Numbered from the stretch's first letter, positions 26,579-51,432 are shown. The stretch is 57,171 nucleotides of DNA from Candidatus Omnitrophota bacterium (GCA_041645145.1 JBAZQO010000002.1:1-57171); one strand, 5' to 3'. The notes: generated by a model from the letters alone, not told the origin. Made by a program: numbers and translations.

Positions 26579-28063
26579 ATGCGCAGCCAGCTAAAGATCA
26601 ATAACCCCTGGGGATATTTTTCCAAGATAATTATCCTAGCATATGCCGTTTTGCAGCTGTTGCGTTTAGCTGTCCTTCCCCAGTTTATAGATATATATTA
26701 TCATCTTCAGGCCGCCTGGGGATTTATTCAGGCCGGAGGTTACAGCAGCTGGGATTTTTGGGAGTATGCCCCGTTTGGCAGGCCGCATATATATCCGCCG
26801 TTATTTCACATTCTCCTGGCTCTGCTTATGAAATCAGGGGCCGGTGTTATATTTCTTGCCAAGTTCTTTGAATCAGCGACTCCGGTTGTATTTTTAATAA
26901 TTTTATGGAATTTTATAAGGAAAACCTACGGCGAACAGCTGGGTTTTTTCGTGGTCGTGGCGTTTAGTTCCGCTTTTGCTTTTTTTATTTCCCTCTCCAA
27001 TCATATCCCAGCATCGTTGGCTTTGATTTTTGGTTTTCTTTCGCTGGGCGAATTATTTAAAAATAGGCTATTACGCGCGGTTATTTTGCTCGTTTTGTGC
27101 TTCTATACGCATATCAGCGTATCCTGGTTTATCGCCTTAAGCTATATCTTTTACGCGGTTATGGATAAGCAGTACAGAAGAAATTCCCTCAAGGTTGTTT
27201 TTTATTCATTGCTAATAGCTTTACCGATTTTGTTTCACCAGTTCCTGGCATTGCATTTTATCCGGTCATTTGGAATGGATATGCCTGAAAGATTTCACTG
27301 TCAGATCAAGGTGATTGATTATATCCTGGCTTTCTTTGGTTTAGCGCTGGCGGCTAAAATGACTCCCAGGCACAGGCTTTTTATCGGCATGTTTCTAGCC
27401 AGCCTAATTTTCTTAACATACCCCTATCGCTTTTTTTCAGGAGAAGGTTATCTTCCGGTTATTTTTCTTTCCGCTTTGACTATGCAGGCGCTCTGGAAGG
27501 AGAAAAAGATATTTGCGGGGGTTTTAGTATTATTTATTTTATTTATTTCGCCTACCTTATCCATGAATAAGCCGGAGGGCCCCAGAAAAACAGGACATCA
27601 GATAAAGTGGGTGGATTCTGCCCTTGCCGGGATGATCCTCGCAAAAGGTAATTCTGTCTGGTTCCCCTGGATGTATCTTCCCGCGGCAGAGGTTATAAAA
27701 ACCAATTCCTCAGCCGGAGATATTGTTTATGCGAATATCAATATCGCCGGCTTGATATTAAGCAACCTTTCGCAAAGAGCTACCGCCAACGCTTTGCTTC
27801 CTGAAATAGGAACTTCGGAGCGCTTTGACCCCTTTTTGTCAGCGAAAATAATTATTTTGTCCGAAGATCTAGACCAGCGTTTGATAAATGACATAAGCCT
27901 TAAATATAACCTGGTCAAGATTAAAGAGAACAAGTATTTCTCGATATTCAAGAACCCCGCAAGCGCCTATAGGCTAAAAATAAGAAAAGCAGACCTTAAC
28001 TTCCGGACAGTTATAATTATCCTTTTTATACTTGCGGGCTTGTTTTGGTGGAAAAAAAGCTAA
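26579..28063 (+). CDS. Polytopic membrane protein, possibly a GT-C-type glycosyltransferase
   Basis: A 494-aa protein with about 10 or more hydrophobic segments. An acidic/aromatic first loop (QFIDIYYHLQAAWG) precedes a soluble C-terminal region and a terminal TM segment. No family was recognised with certainty. Confidence 0.5.
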   Translation: MRSQLKINNPWGYFSKIIILAYAVLQLLRLAVLPQFIDIYYHLQAAWGFIQAGGYSSWDFWEYAPFGRPHIYPPLFHILLALLMKSGAGVIFLAKFFESATPVVFLIILWNFIRKTYGEQLGFFVVVAFSSAFAFFISLSNHIPASLALIFGFLSLGELFKNRLLRAVILLVLCFYTHISVSWFIALSYIFYAVMDKQYRRNSLKVVFYSLLIALPILFHQFLALHFIRSFGMDMPERFHCQIKVIDYILAFFGLALAAKMTPRHRLFIGMFLASLIFLTYPYRFFSGEGYLPVIFLSALTMQALWKEKKIFAGVLVLFILFISPTLSMNKPEGPRKTGHQIKWVDSALAGMILAKGNSVWFPWMYLPAAEVIKTNSSAGDIVYANINIAGLILSNLSQRATANALLPEIGTSERFDPFLSAKIIILSEDLDQRLINDISLKYNLVKIKENKYFSIFKNPASAYRLKIRKADLNFRTVIIILFILAGLFWWKKS

Positions 28064-44007: not shown

Positions 44008-44061
44008 GGAGACGGTTCTATTTTTTACTATTTTTTAAATTTAAAAAATAGAACCGTCCCC
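44008..44061. repeat. Palindromic repeat family A, copy 3 (after the nadX-like gene)
   Basis: GGAGACGGTTCTATTTTTT (44008-44026) pairs with AAAAAATAGAACCGTCCCC (44043-44061), with one mismatch and a 16-nt AT loop. Confidence 0.88.
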
Positions 44062-44098: not shown

Positions 44099-44338
44099 AT
44101 GGCAGAGAAAGTAATGAAAGTAGGGGTCAAGAGGGAAAAAGGTTATCTCTATTATATTGACAAGCAGGGTGATGTCTCTTGCGCTAAGATGGCCAGAGGC
44201 AACAAAAAGGGAGGTAGCCCCAAGAAGGTAGCAAAATGCGGCATCAAGAGAAAAGTAGGCTACCTTTATTTCTTGGATAAGAAAGGCGATGTCTCTTGCG
44301 CCAAGATGAAAAGAGGCGGAAAGAAGAAAAAGAAGTAA
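44099..44338 (+). CDS. Small lysine-rich protein with an internal tandem duplication (unknown function)
   Basis: A 79-aa protein with two roughly 36-39 aa repeats: K.G.KR..GYLY..DK.GDVSCAKM.RG.KK. A GGGGGTG RBS lies 10 nt upstream, and the gene has its own strong terminator. Confidence 0.6.
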   Translation: MAEKVMKVGVKREKGYLYYIDKQGDVSCAKMARGNKKGGSPKKVAKCGIKRKVGYLYFLDKKGDVSCAKMKRGGKKKKK

Positions 44339-44353
44339 GTAAGCTCTACATAA

Positions 44354-44388
44354 GCCCCGCCCTTATTTATAAGGGCGGGGCCTGTTTA
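44354..44388 (+). terminator. Rho-independent terminator after the small basic protein gene
   Basis: A 12-bp perfect stem GCCCCGCCCTTA / TAAGGGCGGGGC with loop TTTA, followed by CTGTTTAT. Confidence 0.75.
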
Positions 44389-44420: not shown

Positions 44421-45881
44421 ATGGTTTTAATAAATCCAAACTCATCCAAATTCGGGATCTTCCAGAGATATGTTCCCGTTAGCGTTCCTATCGGCGCAGG
44501 TTATCTTGCCGGATATTTACTGCATCACGGCAGGAAAGCCGAAATAATAGACGAACTCATCACACCGTTATCCAGGCCGTTGCTTGCTAAACTGCTTGAT
44601 AAACTTTCTCCCCCTTATATCTTTGGGATCTCGACTTTGACCGCCTGCTCGCAAAGAAGCTACGATATCTCAAGACAGATAAAGAATTGGTATCCCGATT
44701 CAATAATTATTTTAGGAGGGATACATCCTACAGTCCTGCCGGAGGAGGCATTAGCAAACGCGGAGGTTGATTTAGTTGTAAGGGGGGAAGGGGAGGAGAT
44801 ACTGCTTGAATTATACGACGCGATCAAAAACAGGAAAGATTATTCACAGATAAAAGGACTGTCATATAAAAGCGGCGGTAAATTAATCCATAATCCGCCT
44901 GCTGAATTGCCCGTTTTAGATGATTCCTTTTTTTTCCCGTACCATCTTTTCGAGAAGGGTTTGGGGAAATATAATTTTGGTTTTATTGCCAGCTCAAGAG
45001 GTTGCCCTTATGATTGTATATTTTGCAGCCAGAGGAGGATATCCGGACAGAGATTCCGCTATCTGCCCGAGGGGGTTATCCTGAATGAAATAGATTTGCT
45101 TATAAATAAATATAAACAGGCGCACATCAACTTTGTTGACGATAATTTTACCACGGACAAACAAAGGATAATCCGCTTATGCCGGGCCATGATAGATAAG
45201 GGATTTCAAAAAATGGCGACCTTTGATTGCCAGACAAGGGCGGATGCGGTTAACGATGAGATTTTGTCCTGGCTGAAGAAAGCCGGGTTCAGGGTGATAA
45301 ATTACGGCCTGGAAACCGCCTCAGAGAGACTGATGGTATTGTTAAACAAGAAAGAAACAGTAGCGGAGAATATCGCGGCGGTGAAGCTGGCAAAAAAACA
45401 TGGTTTTGGGGTATCCGGGACTTTTATCTTTGGCCTGCCGACAGAGACAAGGCTGGAGAGATGGCAGTCCTACCGGCTGGCCAAGGATCTCGATCTGGAT
45501 TATGTGCGTTTTAATAATGCTACGCCGTATCCCGGCACGAGGTTATATGAGATAGCCAAAGAGGAAGGCCGGCTCTTTGTGGAAAAGGGCTGGACCAATC
45601 TTAACGCCTGCGCATCCTTGGTTCAGGACTCGGTTACGGAATACCTGCTGCCCTATGTACCTGAAGGGTGCGATGAGAAGGAATTAAAGAAAGATATCAT
45701 TAAGGCTAACCTGTTCTTTTCGCTTAGGCCCAGAAGGGTCTTTAGGCTACTTACTAAAAGGATCGGACCTGTAGGGTGGTTCTATCTTCCTCCCCGATGG
45801 TATCTAAGTTTAAAAGAATGGAGTTGTCTCATAAGATTGGGCGCTAGTTTATTAAGGTCCTTGGCAAAAATATATATATGA
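44421..45881 (+). CDS. B12-binding-domain radical SAM protein (class B, COG1032-like)
   Basis: N-terminal Rossmann-like B12-binding region (VLINP...PIGAGYLAGYL...IILGGIHPT). Radical SAM cluster motif CPYDCIFC at 45003-45026. Hydrophobic, basic C-terminal tail. Confidence 0.85.
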   Translation: MVLINPNSSKFGIFQRYVPVSVPIGAGYLAGYLLHHGRKAEIIDELITPLSRPLLAKLLDKLSPPYIFGISTLTACSQRSYDISRQIKNWYPDSIIILGGIHPTVLPEEALANAEVDLVVRGEGEEILLELYDAIKNRKDYSQIKGLSYKSGGKLIHNPPAELPVLDDSFFFPYHLFEKGLGKYNFGFIASSRGCPYDCIFCSQRRISGQRFRYLPEGVILNEIDLLINKYKQAHINFVDDNFTTDKQRIIRLCRAMIDKGFQKMATFDCQTRADAVNDEILSWLKKAGFRVINYGLETASERLMVLLNKKETVAENIAAVKLAKKHGFGVSGTFIFGLPTETRLERWQSYRLAKDLDLDYVRFNNATPYPGTRLYEIAKEEGRLFVEKGWTNLNACASLVQDSVTEYLLPYVPEGCDEKELKKDIIKANLFFSLRPRRVFRLLTKRIGPVGWFYLPPRWYLSLKEWSCLIRLGASLLRSLAKIYI

Positions 45882-48157
45882 AGATAAGCGGAAGGCTTAG
45901 AGAGGTCATAGGGGTGGTGGCGGTTATGCTCGGGGTAGTTTGCCTGCAATGGGATTTGTGGGTTACCGGTAGGCTGATGCTCAGCCATGACAGTATTATA
46001 TGGTTCGGCATTTTTTCTTATTTTTCCGATTGCCTGCGGTATGGAATTCTGCCTCTTTGGAATCCGTATATGAACTGCGGGGAGATATTCTTTTTGAATA
46101 TACACGTCCTCCATCTATGGGACCCTCAAACCTTACTCCTGGTCTTTGCGGGTAAATTACTTAAGGTTAATACGTTGAGTATTTATCATTATGATCTCTT
46201 ATTCCGTTACCTGATCTTTATTTGGGGAAGCTATATTTTCTTCAGGCGCGTAGCGAAATACAGGTTCAGCGCTTTCCTTGCTTTTGTTACCTTGTCATTT
46301 TCGGCGCTTTGCAGTTCCTATCTTAAGCAGCATGGTTTTATCCTCTGTTTTTATACGCTTCCCTGGATTTTATTTTTTTCCTTCAAGTTCCTGGAAGAAA
46401 GGGAGCCGGTATCCCTATTATGGTTCTGTTTCCTGTTTGGTGTTGCGCTTTCTACCTCCGGATATCATATAATGTATCTTATTTCTTCTGTCGCGGTATT
46501 ACTTGCATGTATTTTTCTTTCCAAAGGTTTTGTCTTCCCTAAAAATGGCGGTTTAGCAAATAGCCGCAAAGCCGTATTAGGCGCTATTATAATTTTCCTG
46601 CTCCTTTCATTGAATTTAATTCCGGTTTTCCTGACTTATATTCGCGATACGGTGCCGGTTGTCAGGATCTTTGAAGCGACAAAGGCTGCGAATGCCTACC
46701 CTGCCGATTTCTTCAACTTGTTTACGCCTTATTCTTTTATGCTGCATTTTGAAATGATCTATTTTAGATCAATTCTTGCGTCAGAGGCGTTTTTGTACAT
46801 AGGCTTAATCCCCCTATTTCTGGCCATAGTCGGTTTATTCTATTCCCGCCATAAATACAAAATCGGCTTTATGCTCGCCTTGGGTGTTACGGTATTATTG
46901 ATGCTTGGCCCTAAGTTTGGCGTATTGAAATTCTTTTCTTATTTTTTCCCGTTTTTTTTCATAATCAGGAACACTCATACCTTTGCCACGTTTTTTATTT
47001 TTTGCCTGGTTTACTTTACTTGTATAGGCACAGACGCAATATTGGAGCGGATGGAAAACCCGGGATCAGGAAGGGCCCTGCCTAAGGGATTGATTTTAAT
47101 CGCTCTTTTTATCATTGTTGCGGCCATTTTGATCAACCGCTATGTGCTGATGGTTTACCAGGCTCCATTAGCGAAGTCCCCGGAGCTTTATATGTTTGTA
47201 TCTTCGCGTCTCGGGCAAGATTTCGCAACGCTTTTGAATAATCTTTTCTGCCGCTCCTACCGGCATGTTTTTATATTTATAGCATCCTTCTTAGTATTAT
47301 TTTATGTTATCAAAAGGCCGAAGATAAGCCTGTGGTTTAAATATCTCACACTGGTTTCCCTGGTGCTTATCGACCTGCTTTCTTTTAACGCGGTTCTATA
47401 CAGGTCTACGACTATGCCAAAGGCTGACCTATCTTTATGGCCTAAGGAGAAGCTGGCTTATAGCGATAAAAGGGTGCCTGTTATGTTGCCCAGGTATCCT
47501 TTTTTTGGTTTTGCCCCTGCGATGCAGAGGATATTTACCTCTTTTACTTTCAGGATGCCGCCGATAACGACACATTTTTATGAAATGAAGGATTTCTTTA
47601 ATTTTGAGAATGACCAGATGATCCGGCCGGAGATAAAAGAGATCTTTATGGGAGTAACTGACGGGAGGATGAAATTTGTGAACGGCGTTGTTGTTTTGCC
47701 GGTTGAACGCCAGGCCCAGGAATGCGCCAAGCTTGAAGAAAGCATAGCCCAAAGGGTAGTGTTTATCGAGGAGCCCCCCCCGGCAAGATTTGCAAAGCTG
47801 AAAATACCCCTGGAAAAGATTGCAGATGCCCAAATCGTAAAGGGGAAAATCAAGATTTTGGGTTTTGATCCAAACAGTATGCTTTTGGAAGTGCATCCAG
47901 AGGCGGATTGTGTTCTTTATTACATTGATGGATTCGACAGGTCATGGAGGGTTTTTATAGACGGCAAAGAAAGCAAGATTTATAGGGCGAATATGGCCTT
48001 TAAATCCGTTATCCTTGAAAAAGGCCCGCATACCGTACGCTTTATATATGACCCCAAGCTATACAAAATAACCTTGTTTTGTTATTTTGCGGGCCTTTTC
48101 ATTGCGGCCATCATGTTTATTTTCCACCCCGTATTCAGGAAGGGTGTACTTAAATGA
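45878..48157 (+). CDS. YfhO-like polytopic membrane protein (GT-C-type)
   Basis: A 759-aa protein with many TM segments. It has an N-terminal LPLWNPYMNCGE loop and a C-terminal YYIDGFDRSWRVFIDGKESKIYRANMAFKSVILEKGPHTVRFIYDP plus a terminal TM segment, as in the YfhO family. ATGA overlap with the upstream rSAM gene. Confidence 0.7.
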   Translation: MKISGRLREVIGVVAVMLGVVCLQWDLWVTGRLMLSHDSIIWFGIFSYFSDCLRYGILPLWNPYMNCGEIFFLNIHVLHLWDPQTLLLVFAGKLLKVNTLSIYHYDLLFRYLIFIWGSYIFFRRVAKYRFSAFLAFVTLSFSALCSSYLKQHGFILCFYTLPWILFFSFKFLEEREPVSLLWFCFLFGVALSTSGYHIMYLISSVAVLLACIFLSKGFVFPKNGGLANSRKAVLGAIIIFLLLSLNLIPVFLTYIRDTVPVVRIFEATKAANAYPADFFNLFTPYSFMLHFEMIYFRSILASEAFLYIGLIPLFLAIVGLFYSRHKYKIGFMLALGVTVLLMLGPKFGVLKFFSYFFPFFFIIRNTHTFATFFIFCLVYFTCIGTDAILERMENPGSGRALPKGLILIALFIIVAAILINRYVLMVYQAPLAKSPELYMFVSSRLGQDFATLLNNLFCRSYRHVFIFIASFLVLFYVIKRPKISLWFKYLTLVSLVLIDLLSFNAVLYRSTTMPKADLSLWPKEKLAYSDKRVPVMLPRYPFFGFAPAMQRIFTSFTFRMPPITTHFYEMKDFFNFENDQMIRPEIKEIFMGVTDGRMKFVNGVVVLPVERQAQECAKLEESIAQRVVFIEEPPPARFAKLKIPLEKIADAQIVKGKIKILGFDPNSMLLEVHPEADCVLYYIDGFDRSWRVFIDGKESKIYRANMAFKSVILEKGPHTVRFIYDPKLYKITLFCYFAGLFIAAIMFIFHPVFRKGVLK

Positions 48158-49569
48158 AAGTTTGTTTTGTTCAGAAGCAAATCTTTCCGTATTTTGGGGT
48201 GATGGCCCTTTCCGGCCAACTCAAGAAACAGGGATATGAGACGGATATCCTGATAGATGCTTGTGAAAAAGACGCAGTTTCGGCGTTAAAAAAAGCTAAA
48301 CCTGATTTGATCGCTTTTTCCGTATTGTCATCCGAGCATGCCTGGCTCCGGCAGATATCCTCCGAGTTAAAAAAGCAGATCCCCTCTGTTCCTATAGCCG
48401 CGGGAGGGGTTCATGCAATTCTGTATCCGGAGGAGGTCTTAGCGCTCCCCGGAGTGGATTATCTGTGTCATGGCGAGGGGGAATCCTCATTTACCGAGTT
48501 GGCGCGCTGTATCGCTTTAAAGAAACCAACCTCCAATATCCCCGGTATCTGCTTAAAAGAGGAGGGGAGTCTCCTGATGCGGGGTGTTGCTCCCATAACC
48601 GGAGATCTGGATTCATTTTTTGAGGACCGGCGCCTGTATTACGAGCGTTACCCTAAACTGGGAAAGCTTGCCTTAAAGGTTTTTATGTCCTCGCGCGGCT
48701 GCCCGTTTCACTGTTCTTTTTGCGCGAACAGCTCTATTATGCGGATTTTTGAGGGTAAGGGAGAATATATGCGGAGAAAGTCGCCGCAGCATTTTGTCGA
48801 AGAGATAAAACGCGTTGTTACCGACTATCCTACCACTTCGCTGTTTTTTGCCGATGACCTTTTTGCCATGGATACCGGCTGGCTTGAAATATTCGGCCCT
48901 TTGTATAAGAAAGAAGTAAACCTTCCCTATATATGCACAGCCAGGGTTGACGTGGTTAAAGAGGAGCATGCCCGGCTTCTTGCTGAATCCGGCTGCCATA
49001 CCGTAAGCTTTGGCGTGGAAACCGGAAACGAATTATTGCGCAAAGGTCTCCTTAATAAAACCATAAGTAATAAACGTATATTTGAGGGCGCAGGCATTAT
49101 TAAAAAAGCAGGCATAAGGATGCAGACCTCAAATATGTTCTGCCTGCCTGATGAATCGGTTGATGATGCGGTAGCGACGGTTGATCTGAATATCGCCATC
49201 GGCGCTGATTATATGTTTACGACAGTCCTGCTGCCGTTTCCCAAGACCGCCTTAGCCGCCTATTGCATAGATAAGGGGTTGCTTAAGAAAGAATATTCTT
49301 TTGAGGATATACCTAATTCATTTATCCAGGATTCGGTGTTGTCTTTAAACAATAAAGAAACCCTCCTTAACATCCATAAGGTAGCCCATCTTTGCGTGCG
49401 CTTCCCCCGCATGAAACCTTTTTTGATCTATATCGCCAAAAAAATTAAATGCAGGCAACTATTCTTATTTCTCTGGTTGTTCGGAACTTTTATCAGGTTC
49501 AGGGAGGAGAGGCAGTTGAGTTTATGGAGGACAGCGCGCTATCTTTGGGAGTACCGGCGGGGTTTGTGA
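48154..49569 (+). CDS. B12-binding-domain radical SAM protein (class B), second copy
   Basis: Same architecture as 44421-45881 but divergent in sequence. CPFHCSFC at 48700-48723. ATGA overlap with the YfhO-like gene. Hydrophobic, basic C-terminal tail. Confidence 0.85.
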   Translation: MKVCFVQKQIFPYFGVMALSGQLKKQGYETDILIDACEKDAVSALKKAKPDLIAFSVLSSEHAWLRQISSELKKQIPSVPIAAGGVHAILYPEEVLALPGVDYLCHGEGESSFTELARCIALKKPTSNIPGICLKEEGSLLMRGVAPITGDLDSFFEDRRLYYERYPKLGKLALKVFMSSRGCPFHCSFCANSSIMRIFEGKGEYMRRKSPQHFVEEIKRVVTDYPTTSLFFADDLFAMDTGWLEIFGPLYKKEVNLPYICTARVDVVKEEHARLLAESGCHTVSFGVETGNELLRKGLLNKTISNKRIFEGAGIIKKAGIRMQTSNMFCLPDESVDDAVATVDLNIAIGADYMFTTVLLPFPKTALAAYCIDKGLLKKEYSFEDIPNSFIQDSVLSLNNKETLLNIHKVAHLCVRFPRMKPFLIYIAKKIKCRQLFLFLWLFGTFIRFREERQLSLWRTARYLWEYRRGL

Positions 49570-49578
49570 GCAAACTAT

Positions 49579-51432
49579 ATGGAAAGAATAGATAAATTTT
49601 GTCAAAAATGGGCTGAGCATCTGCTCTGGGCCTCCATTTTGTCGTACATCCTTGTTTTCGGGTATTTGTGTTTTTTAAAGTACCAGTCTTTTAATTATAC
49701 GGATTGGGATCTGGCAGGAGACGCCGTTGTCTTCTGGAGCAGTATTCATGGTAAGCTTCTATATTACTCCTTCCTGGAGCAGATAATTTTCGGGGCTCAC
49801 TTATATTTAATAATCTTCCTGATTTTGCCGATATACGCGGTCTTTCAAAGTCCTTTGACGCTTCTATTTCTGCAAAGCATATTCCTGGGATTGGCAGCGT
49901 TTCCCCTGTATCTTTTAGCCAGGAGCAGGCTGAACAAGACCTTTTCTTTGTCTATAGCCATTGCCTATTTACTATACCCTTCGATCGGGTATATGAATTT
50001 GTTTGAGACGCATTTTGACATATATGAGATATTTTTTCTTTTCTTTGCCTTGTATTACTTTGAAAAAGAGAATTTCAGAAGGTTTCTTGTTTTTATAATA
50101 CTGACCATCTTTTGCAAGGAAAACGCAAGTTTAGCGGTATCTATGCTCGGCATATACGCGTTGATACGGAAAAGGTCTAAAAAATGGGTCTTAATTCCTT
50201 TCTTGGCAGGAGTTGCCTGGTTTCTATTGTCGGTGAAGCTGATAATCCCGCATTTTACAAAGGACGCCCAATTATATCAGGGTGGTTTTATATTCAGCCA
50301 CTATTATAAGCACCTGGGTAGTAATCTGTTTGAGATGGTTAAAACGGTTATCCTCCATCCGGTAAGTACCGCGTTTTTTGCTTTTACCCCCCGTAAGTTA
50401 ACTTATATTCTTCATTTGCTTATGCCGGTTGGATTTTTGGGATTATTCAGCCCCCTGGTTTTGTTGCCGGCAATCCCGGTTTTTATGCAGAATTTATTAT
50501 CTGTGGCCCAGACTCATTCGTCGATTGAATTTCAATATGCTGCTTTACTGATCCCGTTCATATTCTTTTCGGTAATCCACTCCTTTGTTAAGCTGCTGCG
50601 TTACAAGGTTGTTATCAGGAATCAAGGGGCATTATTATGCTGTTTTTTCGGGTTTGTTATTTTTTCCGGTATCTATTTACAGGCCCCGCAATTTGATATC
50701 ATCGGATATATGTATCGGTACCGGATTGACTATTTTAGCGCGCAAAAAGATAAATTGATCAGGTCGGTGCCGCGCAAATCCCCGGTTATTGCGACTTTTC
50801 AGTTTTTGCCAAAATTAGCAAACAGGCGGGATCTCTATTCCATGCATCTTATAGCGATGGGTTACAAGATGTACACGAACACGAGATATGAGCCGCCTAA
50901 GAATCTTGAATACGCTTTGATAGATTTTAACGAGCCCCTTATGCTAAGCGCATTTTTCCCGCCGCAAGGGGCAGGCAATATCCGCACCTTTCTTGAAACC
51001 GGAGATTGGAGGGTTTTTAAGGCTTTTGATGATACGGTCTTATTCAAAAAGGGGTATGAGGAAGGATACCGGCTCTGCGAAGAGGTACGTAATCCTAAAA
51101 TAGGCAATCCTATGAATCTGGTCTTGAAAAACGGGATTATTTTCTTAGGGTATGATATCGTGGATAATAAAATATCCGACAGCAGGATATTGCACCTGGT
51201 ATACTATTGGAAAAAGACAAAGGGGGCAAGGCCTCCCTTGGGATTTTTTATCCAATTCTCAGATCCTCCCGGAAATGTCGTTTTTGTGAAAGGGCATATT
51301 TTCGGATACAGAGTATATTTACAGGATGAATGGAAGGATGGCCAGATAATGAAAGAACATCAGTATATCTTGATTCCTCCAGGAGCAGAAAAAAAGAGCT
51401 ACAGGATTGATTTCGGCCCATTCATTAATTAG
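49579..51432 (+). CDS. DUF2079-like polytopic membrane protein (GT-C-like)
   Basis: A 617-aa protein. The N-terminal [19 protein letters not shown] ... [16 protein letters not shown] ... [21 protein letters not shown] resembles the DUF2079 signature as I recall it. Soluble C-terminal domain. Confidence 0.65.

Follow-up and report, generated by a model that had tools for sequence, protein, structure and literature searches.

The 57,171-nucleotide stretch of Candidatus Omnitrophota DNA analysed here (GCA_041645145.1, JBAZQO010000002.1:1-57171; this whole stretch is the window in what follows) carries, at positions 44421-51432, a cassette of four genes in which two B12-binding radical S-adenosylmethionine (SAM) enzymes, rSAM-1 and rSAM-2, alternate with two large polytopic membrane proteins. 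With slightly better than even confidence, we read this cassette as the detached head of an uncharacterised, rSAM-rich pathway for an envelope glycan, organised like three-component periplasmic glycosylation. In such a pathway the sugar would be made on a nucleotide, by heptose-type or amino-deoxy-sugar genes as seen in relatives, and an ArnC-like GT2 would load it onto polyprenyl phosphate. The two rSAMs, held at the membrane by their C-terminal tails, would tailor the sugar donor on the cytoplasmic face, in either its nucleotide-linked or its lipid-linked form; the reaction, at an unactivated carbon, would most plausibly be a C-methylation, or else another radical rearrangement. The lipid-linked sugar would then be flipped across the membrane, where each of the membrane proteins, of GT-C type (YfhO-like and DUF2079), would transfer it to a presumed envelope acceptor on the periplasmic face.

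The four open reading frames (ORFs) lie exactly where the original prediction, made from the sequence by a model, had placed them, in the alternating order rSAM/YfhO-like/rSAM/DUF2079: rSAM-1 (44421-45881, 486 amino acids), protein 2, which is YfhO-like (45878-48157, 759 amino acids), rSAM-2 (48154-49569, 471 amino acids) and protein 4, a DUF2079 protein (49579-51432, 617 amino acids). ORF calling puts all of them in the same direction on the plus strand. The tight packing described earlier was confirmed by direct reading of the sequence, with ATGA overlaps between the stop of rSAM-1 and the start of protein 2 (45878-45881) and between the stop of protein 2 and the start of rSAM-2 (48154-48157), followed by a 9-nucleotide gap from the stop of rSAM-2 to the start of protein 4 at 49579.

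Both rSAMs match the Pfam families B12-binding (PF02310, gathering score 32.1 bits) and Radical_SAM (PF04055) above the gathering score, with 56.2 and 86.7 bits, respectively, for rSAM-1 and 68.7 and 73.5 bits for rSAM-2. The B12-binding domain of rSAM-1 covers residues 22-131 (44484..44813, plus strand) and its [4Fe-4S] cluster motif, CPYDCIFC, is read at 45003..45026 (plus strand), and its three cysteines, C195, C199 and C202, do not vary in the family alignment; in rSAM-2 the corresponding motif is CPFHCSFC, at 48700..48723 (plus strand). The N-terminal B12-binding domain and the CxxxCxxC motif that had been attributed to each protein are thus both present and, judged by these features, rSAM-1 and rSAM-2 are class-B (B12-binding) radical SAM enzymes. 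The anchor gene of the system is rSAM-1, whose family is found at 52-92% identity in Omnitrophota, Elusimicrobia and KSB1, with homologues of about 40-45% in Desulfobacterota-type lineages, Nitrospirota, anammox Planctomycetota, Spirochaetota and others. Orthologues of rSAM-2 in other phyla are 44-53% identical and stand beside rSAM-1-like and GT-C-like genes (loci L036, L047 and L049). Two side observations concern this family: a contig labelled 'Candidatus Uhrbacteria' (MGDU01000015.1, L007), with an rSAM-1 80% identical to the Omnitrophota protein, is probably mis-binned, and a 727-residue fusion of a B12-binding radical SAM and a class-I SAM methyltransferase domain (L011:18835-21018) belongs to an Omnitrophota cluster that begins with an rSAM-1 of 79% identity.

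Concerning the C termini, the last 60 residues of rSAM-1 (45699..45878, plus strand) form a basic amphipathic tail with 12 Lys/Arg against 1 Asp/Glu, the hydrophobic moment of the protein peaking in the last 18-mer (muH 0.65), and W453, L456, W460 and Y461 are invariant across phyla in the family alignment. The tail of rSAM-2 (LFLFLWLFGTFI...; 49387..49566, plus strand) is hydrophobic and basic, with 14 Lys/Arg against 3 Asp/Glu, and its pattern is retained in orthologues of other phyla. The basic, hydrophobic tails pointed out originally are hence real, and conserved. That of rSAM-1 may be a peripheral membrane anchor or a partner interface, and the conserved basic amphipathic character of both tails would fit an action at the membrane.

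In a profile search neither rSAM reaches any NCBIfam cutoff, which leaves both outside the characterised families. The best matches of rSAM-1 are BchE (TIGR02026; 183 bits, cutoff 481) and HpnJ (TIGR03471; 147 bits, cutoff 578), with 94 bits for HpnR (TIGR04367; cutoff 650), 112 bits for TIGR04072 (lipid biosynthesis B12-binding/radical SAM; cutoff 360) and 119 bits for ApyD (NF050148; cutoff 750). The best matches of rSAM-2 are ApyD and BchE, with 113 bits each against cutoffs of 750 and 481, while its scores for HpnJ (89 bits) and HpnR (59 bits) are also under the cutoffs. BchE, HpnJ, HpnR, MgmA, ApyD and the ladderane-type family were rejected as identities of the two enzymes since the scores are far under the curated cutoffs, and the labels 'anaerobic Mg-protoporphyrin IX monomethyl ester cyclase', 'BchE' and 'YgiQ' carried by homologues are over-annotation. 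Among the class-B rSAM families that act on ribosomally synthesised and post-translationally modified peptides (RiPPs), the cutoffs of ApyD and TIGR03975 are not reached and no cassette-linked precursor was found; nor are there hpn genes in the window or in related loci. By sequence, the nearest solved structures to rSAM-1 are 9CCB (84 bits), the B12-dependent glutamine C-methyltransferase MgmA/QCMT, and AprD4 (65 bits), a sugar-acting enzyme of an aminoglycoside pathway, the latter being also the nearest to rSAM-2 (59 bits).

Of the two membrane proteins, protein 4 scores 199.1 bits with DUF2079 (PF09852; gathering score 28.2), the match running from residue 34 to 422 over model positions 1-400 of 459. 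Protein 2 gives 25.2 bits with YfhO (PF09586), below the gathering score of 28.5, in a match restricted to residues 686-735 at its C-terminal end (model positions 785-834), and the precomputed YfhO matches of its homologues are listed or flagged 'weak'. Because the Pfam match is sub-threshold and C-terminal only, the YfhO-like label given earlier rests on the predicted structure. The subfamily of protein 2 has about 50 members, and where a source name is given it is Omnitrophica or unclassified bacterium.

AlphaFold2 models built from the family alignments reached a predicted local distance difference test score (pLDDT) of 84.9 and a predicted TM-score (pTM) of 0.87 for protein 2, and 91.8 and 0.90 for protein 4. 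In Foldseek searches of the PDB, the top 18 matches of protein 2 are all GT-C enzymes (best E value 4.6e-4, probability 1.0), with AftD, STT3, ArnT, PglB, AglB, EmbC, AftA and DPY19 represented, and the 15 matches of protein 4 with an E value below 1e-3 are all STT3, AglB or PglB, ArnT being next. On these models proteins 2 and 4 are both predicted, with high confidence, to have GT-C glycosyltransferase folds, in agreement with the GT-C-like nature first suggested for them. GT-C enzymes carry catalytic residues in the loop that follows the first transmembrane helix (TM1). The first extracytoplasmic loop of protein 2, placed after TM1 in the model (45989..46084, plus strand), is a candidate catalytic loop, in which D38, D51, W61-N62-P63-Y64 and E69 are invariant in a 29-sequence alignment. 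The same loop of protein 4 harbors a candidate catalytic acidic motif, D42-x-D44 (49702..49710, plus strand), with D44 invariant and D42 present in at least 90% of the sequences of a 32-sequence alignment. Protein 2 is also predicted to have a C-terminal periplasmic beta-sandwich domain (residues 598-724; 47669..48049, plus strand) ahead of its final transmembrane helix, which gives weak CBM6-like Foldseek matches only and may be an acceptor-binding module; the model of protein 4 shows a C-terminal beta-rich periplasmic domain.

Gene layouts were compared among the Omnitrophota loci whose rSAM-1 is at least 60% identical. The full four-gene layout of the window recurs, in the same order, in five other species-level genomes (L009, L010, L012, L072 and L087), so the cassette is syntenic beyond this contig and the four-gene arrangement is not chance. 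Shorter layouts are rSAM1–DUF2079 (L015, L017, L020 and L074), rSAM1–X–DUF2079 (L016 and L021, X being a class-I methyltransferase in L021) and rSAM1–YfhO–DUF2079 (L008, L013 and L014). In Omnitrophota no gene accompanies rSAM-1 more constantly than DUF2079, and the three-gene variants combine one rSAM with two GT-Cs. The cassette had been taken for a duplicated two-gene module, a view that did not survive: the two rSAMs are only 28% identical, whereas rSAM-2 has closer orthologues (44-53%) in other phyla, and proteins 2 and 4 show no similarity by BLASTP or by profile-profile comparison with hhalign. A recent duplication was consequently rejected, and the nested layouts point to stepwise accretion around an rSAM-1/DUF2079 core.

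That no pathway could be recognised around the cassette holds within the window, but not in relatives. In L087, whose rSAM-1 is 80% identical, the four genes continue unbroken into genes for a GT9, a SPASM-rSAM, E1 alpha, E1 beta and a GT2, at a site beside dnaA, yidC, mnmG and parAB that is unrelated to the site in the window. The L087-type tail is also seen in L012, L013, L014, L015 and L017, reaching a GT2 and a second SPASM-rSAM in L015 and L017, and in L017 going on to the small membrane protein unkA. A GT2 gene is thus found immediately downstream of the cassette in L087, and also in the L015, L017 and L090 clusters. The best NCBIfam matches of the tail GT2 are the polyprenyl-phosphate glycosyltransferases ArnC, AglJ and PpgS, below the cutoffs; the GT9 is weakly heptosyltransferase-like, and HldE-like and GmhA-like genes occur in wider relatives.

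In a wider survey, 989 neighbouring ORFs from 79 species-level loci of rSAM-1 homologues were clustered. The recurrent families, with the number of loci, were SPASM-rSAM (38), GT2 (31), nucleoside diphosphate (NDP)-sugar 4,6-dehydratase/epimerase (25), DegT (20), unkA (20), YfhO-like (19), unkB (18), transketolase-C/E1 beta (15), DUF2079 (13), E1 alpha (11), HldE-like (9), GmhA-like (9), transketolase-N (9) and GT9 (8). Of the 73 rSAM-1 homologues with at least 39% identity, 52 have a large polytopic protein encoded within 8 kb, directly adjacent in 29, compared with 2 of 8 homologues in the outgroup. Four GT-C-like families adjoin rSAM-1-like genes across phyla, namely YfhO, DUF2079, PMT_2 and an unnamed family of about 573 residues with a GDDW motif. 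In the reverse test, a 33%-identical YfhO-like protein (L090) was seen to lie in the same type of cluster together with two B12-rSAMs.

For the flipping step, neither the window nor Omnitrophota relatives showed a recognisable dedicated flippase of GtrA, SMR or MATE type; candidates appear only in wider relatives, as LPG_synthase_TM-type proteins and as the paired proteins unkA and unkB, of three transmembrane helices. The latter are paralogous proteins of about 175 residues, each with about three transmembrane helices and a cytoplasmic domain, which form an adjacent pair beside rSAM-1 homologues in 18-20 loci (L025:11520-12582; L016, L043, L048, L004 and others). They have no Pfam or NCBIfam match, the unkA family ends in a PKGG-type motif, and the pair could be the flippase or a membrane scaffold of the pathway.

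Other arrangements in relatives deserve mention. A bifunctional HldE-like gene of swapped domain order, with the nucleotidyltransferase at the N terminus and the PfkB kinase at the C terminus (L043:961-2502; L042, L024, L026, L030), adjoins a GmhA-like isomerase, a pair that suggests a non-canonical NDP-heptose pathway. Giant YfhO-like proteins (1034-1333 amino acids) are encoded directly downstream of rSAM-1-like genes (L048:11556-15557; L050, L056, L059) in Candidatus Scalindua and in Deltaproteobacteria-type metagenome-assembled genomes. Tandem polytopic proteins of about 570-700 residues with a GDDWxW motif after TM1 lie beside rSAM-1 homologues (L025:14719-18055; L046, L052, L054, L057); they have no Pfam match and may constitute a further, undescribed GT-C-like family. 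At L088 (8001-11616) a distant DUF2079 gene overlaps a gene for a 569-residue methyltransferase-GT2 fusion, with PEMT/ICMT-type membrane methyltransferases nearby, which would be the class-I-methyltransferase counterpart of the rSAM-linked arrangement.

It should be noted that several points weigh against a glycan pathway of this kind. The window itself is without GT2, flippase or sugar-nucleotide genes, and none of the partner genes for GT2, GT9, SPASM, E1, DegT, HldE, GmhA and unkA/B is found in it. The original prediction had remarked on the missing GT2, flippase and sugar-nucleotide genes, correctly for the window but not for relatives with the same cassette; the pathway is therefore reconstructed from relatives rather than shown for this genome. 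Functional assignment proceeds entirely by gene association, and no characterised member was found in the two rSAM families, in this YfhO-like subfamily or in DUF2079. The GT-C folds are predictions with low Foldseek TM-scores (0.3-0.48), low values being usual between GT-C families. SPASM-rSAMs are more typical of peptide maturation. The families that best match rSAM-1, BchE and HpnJ, are not methyltransferases, and given this similarity a rearrangement chemistry is also possible. Finally, distant DUF2079 homologues are not linked to rSAMs, so the link is specific to this DUF2079 subfamily.

A more pointed version of the proposal, which we put forward only tentatively and hold to be rather unlikely as a whole, is that the tail-anchored class-B rSAMs act directly on polyprenyl-phosphate-linked sugars, by C-methylation or by an HpnJ-like carbocycle-forming rearrangement, and feed dedicated GT-Cs, forming a radical branch of periplasmic glycosylation. 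If true, this branch would be one not recognised before, and unusual envelope sugars would be expected across many uncultured anaerobic phyla (Omnitrophota, Elusimicrobiota, Desulfobacterota, Nitrospirota and anammox Planctomycetota).

The alternative that fares best against the envelope-glycan pathway, itself improbable, separates the two kinds of protein. The GT-C-fold proteins would not transfer single tailored sugars but polymerise, ligate or scaffold an envelope polymer, and the substrate of the rSAMs would be either this polymer once complete or some unrelated cytoplasmic molecule, with nothing but co-regulation between the two kinds. This alternative agrees with a window that has no GT2 and with a pairing of rSAM and GT-C that is not one-to-one, as the three-gene variants have one rSAM and two GT-Cs. 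It fits poorly with the tight translational coupling through ATGA overlaps, with the cross-phylum adjacency of rSAM-1 to four GT-C-like families and with first-loop acidic residues that are conserved as is typical of catalytic GT-Cs.

The original prediction had left open the modification of either a membrane lipid or an envelope polymer. The gene context in relatives agrees with the polymer, whereas the lipid half is disfavoured, as it is carbohydrate enzymes that recur next to the family and not lipid-synthesis genes. In its full form the lipid alternative would give the class-B rSAMs a membrane lipid as substrate, to be methylated, cyclised or cross-linked in hopanoid-, ladderane- or tetraether-type chemistry, and would have the polytopic proteins handle or glycosylate this lipid. 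The partial similarity to HpnJ, HpnR and TIGR04072, the membrane-directed look of the rSAM tails and the fact that HpnJ itself acts on a lipid-linked sugar speak for it, but those three scores are far under the cutoffs, no lipid-synthesis genes recur near the family, and plsX, fabH and fabF of the window are housekeeping genes about 24 kb from the cassette; we thus regard it as very doubtful.

Just as slight is the chance that the cassette serves peptide or protein maturation, with RiPP-type or protein-modifying rSAMs and with GT-Cs that act, like PMT, STT3 or DPY19, as glycosyltransferases on that same secreted protein: an RiPP enzyme (ApyD) as best NCBIfam match of rSAM-2, a protein methyltransferase (MgmA) as nearest PDB relative of rSAM-1, SPASM-rSAMs as common neighbours, oligosaccharyltransferases as best structural matches of DUF2079 and a small ORF just upstream of the cassette would all suit it, but ApyD is at 113 bits against a cutoff of 750, the small ORF sits behind a conserved terminator, is tied to the nadX backbone and is absent at L087 and L008, and no precursor-like gene, peptidase or exporter recurs, the neighbours being sugar-nucleotide enzymes.

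This small ORF (44099-44338, plus strand) encodes a very basic, lysine-rich protein of 79 amino acids with two internal repeats (KVGVKREKGYLYYIDKQGDVSCAKMARG and KCGIKRKVGYLYFLDKKGDVSCAKMKRG), and is flanked by hairpins at about 44010-44058 and at 44354-44381. Pfam gives no match for it. Its identity in relatives is 87-97%, against only 56-83% for the flanking genes there; it accompanies the nadX backbone and is missing where the cassette sits elsewhere (L087 and L008). It was rejected as an RiPP precursor, given the conserved terminator in between, a conservation higher than that of its neighbours and its absence from other cassette loci; the product may be a nucleic-acid-binding protein.

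The second of these hairpins (44354..44381, plus strand; 12-bp stem with 9 G-C pairs) resembles an intrinsic terminator and marks the 5' boundary of the cassette. It ends the upstream small-ORF unit and separates it from the cassette, which therefore begins a transcription unit of its own; the hairpin is kept in relatives sharing the window backbone, with a different stem sequence in L021. A promoter scan gave counts no better than those of shuffled sequence, and a cobalamin riboswitch or other RNA element was discarded for lack of an Rfam match at gathering score. At the other end, uvrA follows DUF2079 directly in the window, as it does in L072 and L021, and since no strong terminator lies between the two, uvrA may be co-transcribed with the cassette. 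The uvrA ORF was called mechanically from TTG 51407, overlapping the end of DUF2079; ATG 51443, which leaves a gap of 10 nucleotides, is the more plausible start.

The rest of the window is mainly core metabolism and information processing (AlaRS, TrpE, SecDF, RecG, PlsX/FabH/FabF, LeuCD, Asd, TruA, L13/S9, the arg and dap genes, PanC, NadX and UvrA), and it holds no tRNA and no Rfam match at gathering score. The claim that the cassette is its only non-core block is not strictly right, as it overlooks the 79-residue ORF and the ORF at 26579-28063 (plus strand). The latter, unannotated and located between truA and rplM/rpsI, encodes a 494-residue polytopic membrane protein with no Pfam match, the first loop of which (SSWDFWEYAPFGRPHIYPPLF) resembles that of GT-C/ArnT-type enzymes; as a third GT-C it was negative in hhalign comparisons with both GT-C alignments. 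All substantial annotated ORFs over the 57 kb are on the plus strand, and such a long run of strictly co-oriented genes is unusual; the GC skew of the window (1-57171) is positive all along it, the cumulative skew climbing monotonically.

If the proposed glycan pathway is true, it would define a widespread but unstudied means of decorating the envelope with radical-modified sugars in bacteria that are anaerobic and for the most part uncultured. It would provide a first function for DUF2079 and for a new YfhO-like subfamily, enlarge B12-dependent radical SAM enzymology by two new substrate classes and expand the three-component glycosylation paradigm. In Omnitrophota, ultra-small bacteria believed to rely on other cells, surface glycans are likely to be central to cell-cell contact. 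The two-, three- and four-gene layouts, together with those carrying the tail, offer a natural series for assigning the roles of the enzymes.

With regard to known systems, curated families cover none of the four proteins beyond the level of Pfam domains. The kind of system is known, namely a glycan cluster with periplasmic transfer by GT-C enzymes, and in the literature found there is no description of class-B rSAMs coupled tightly to GT-Cs across phyla: none of it joins YfhO or GT-C proteins with radical SAM enzymes, links B12-rSAMs with heptose or Omnitrophota rSAMs with glycans, or reports experiments on DUF2079. A paper on the S-layer glycan of Kuenenia describes heavy methylation and names no genes, and is a weak lead only. 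Protein 4 is a clear member of DUF2079 (PF09852) and shares with it a predicted GT-C fold; protein 2 shares the predicted GT-C fold of YfhO (PF09586) and has homologues with YfhO matches, its own score being sub-threshold.

HpnJ and BchE resemble rSAM-1 in combining a B12-binding with a radical SAM domain, in alignments of about 380 residues, and differ in that their cutoffs are not reached and no hopanoid or bacteriochlorophyll genes lie near the cassette. HpnJ, an enzyme of hopanoid cyclitol-ether formation, has as its substrate a sugar borne by a membrane lipid, and its gene accompanies that of a GT2, HpnI. AprD4, the class-B C-methyltransferase GenK and MgmA/QCMT (9CCB) illustrate that enzymes of this class are able to act on carbon atoms of carbohydrates or to methylate sp3 carbons; their similarity to the rSAMs of the cassette is remote, at superfamily level, their substrates are soluble antibiotic intermediates or protein, and none is coupled to a GT-C.

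A close comparison is with the three-component systems, i.e. GtrA/GtrB/Gtr*, CsbB/YfhO of lipoteichoic acid, ArnB/ArnC/ArnT and the GT136 pentofuranose system (PMC11127046). The cassette differs from them in its two GT-Cs of unrelated families and its two translationally coupled class-B rSAMs, in the lack of an identified GtrA-, SMR- or MATE-type flippase and in a window without GT2, and no radical SAM enzyme was found in any three-component system described in the literature found. Common to both are a GT-C, a lipid-linked donor and transfer at the outer face, as predicted for the cassette, which in relatives is contiguous with an ArnC-like GT2 and sugar-nucleotide genes. Some of the three-component systems also include tailoring of the lipid-linked donor, for example by DprE1/E2 (PMC11127046), to which an action of the rSAMs at the membrane would be analogous.

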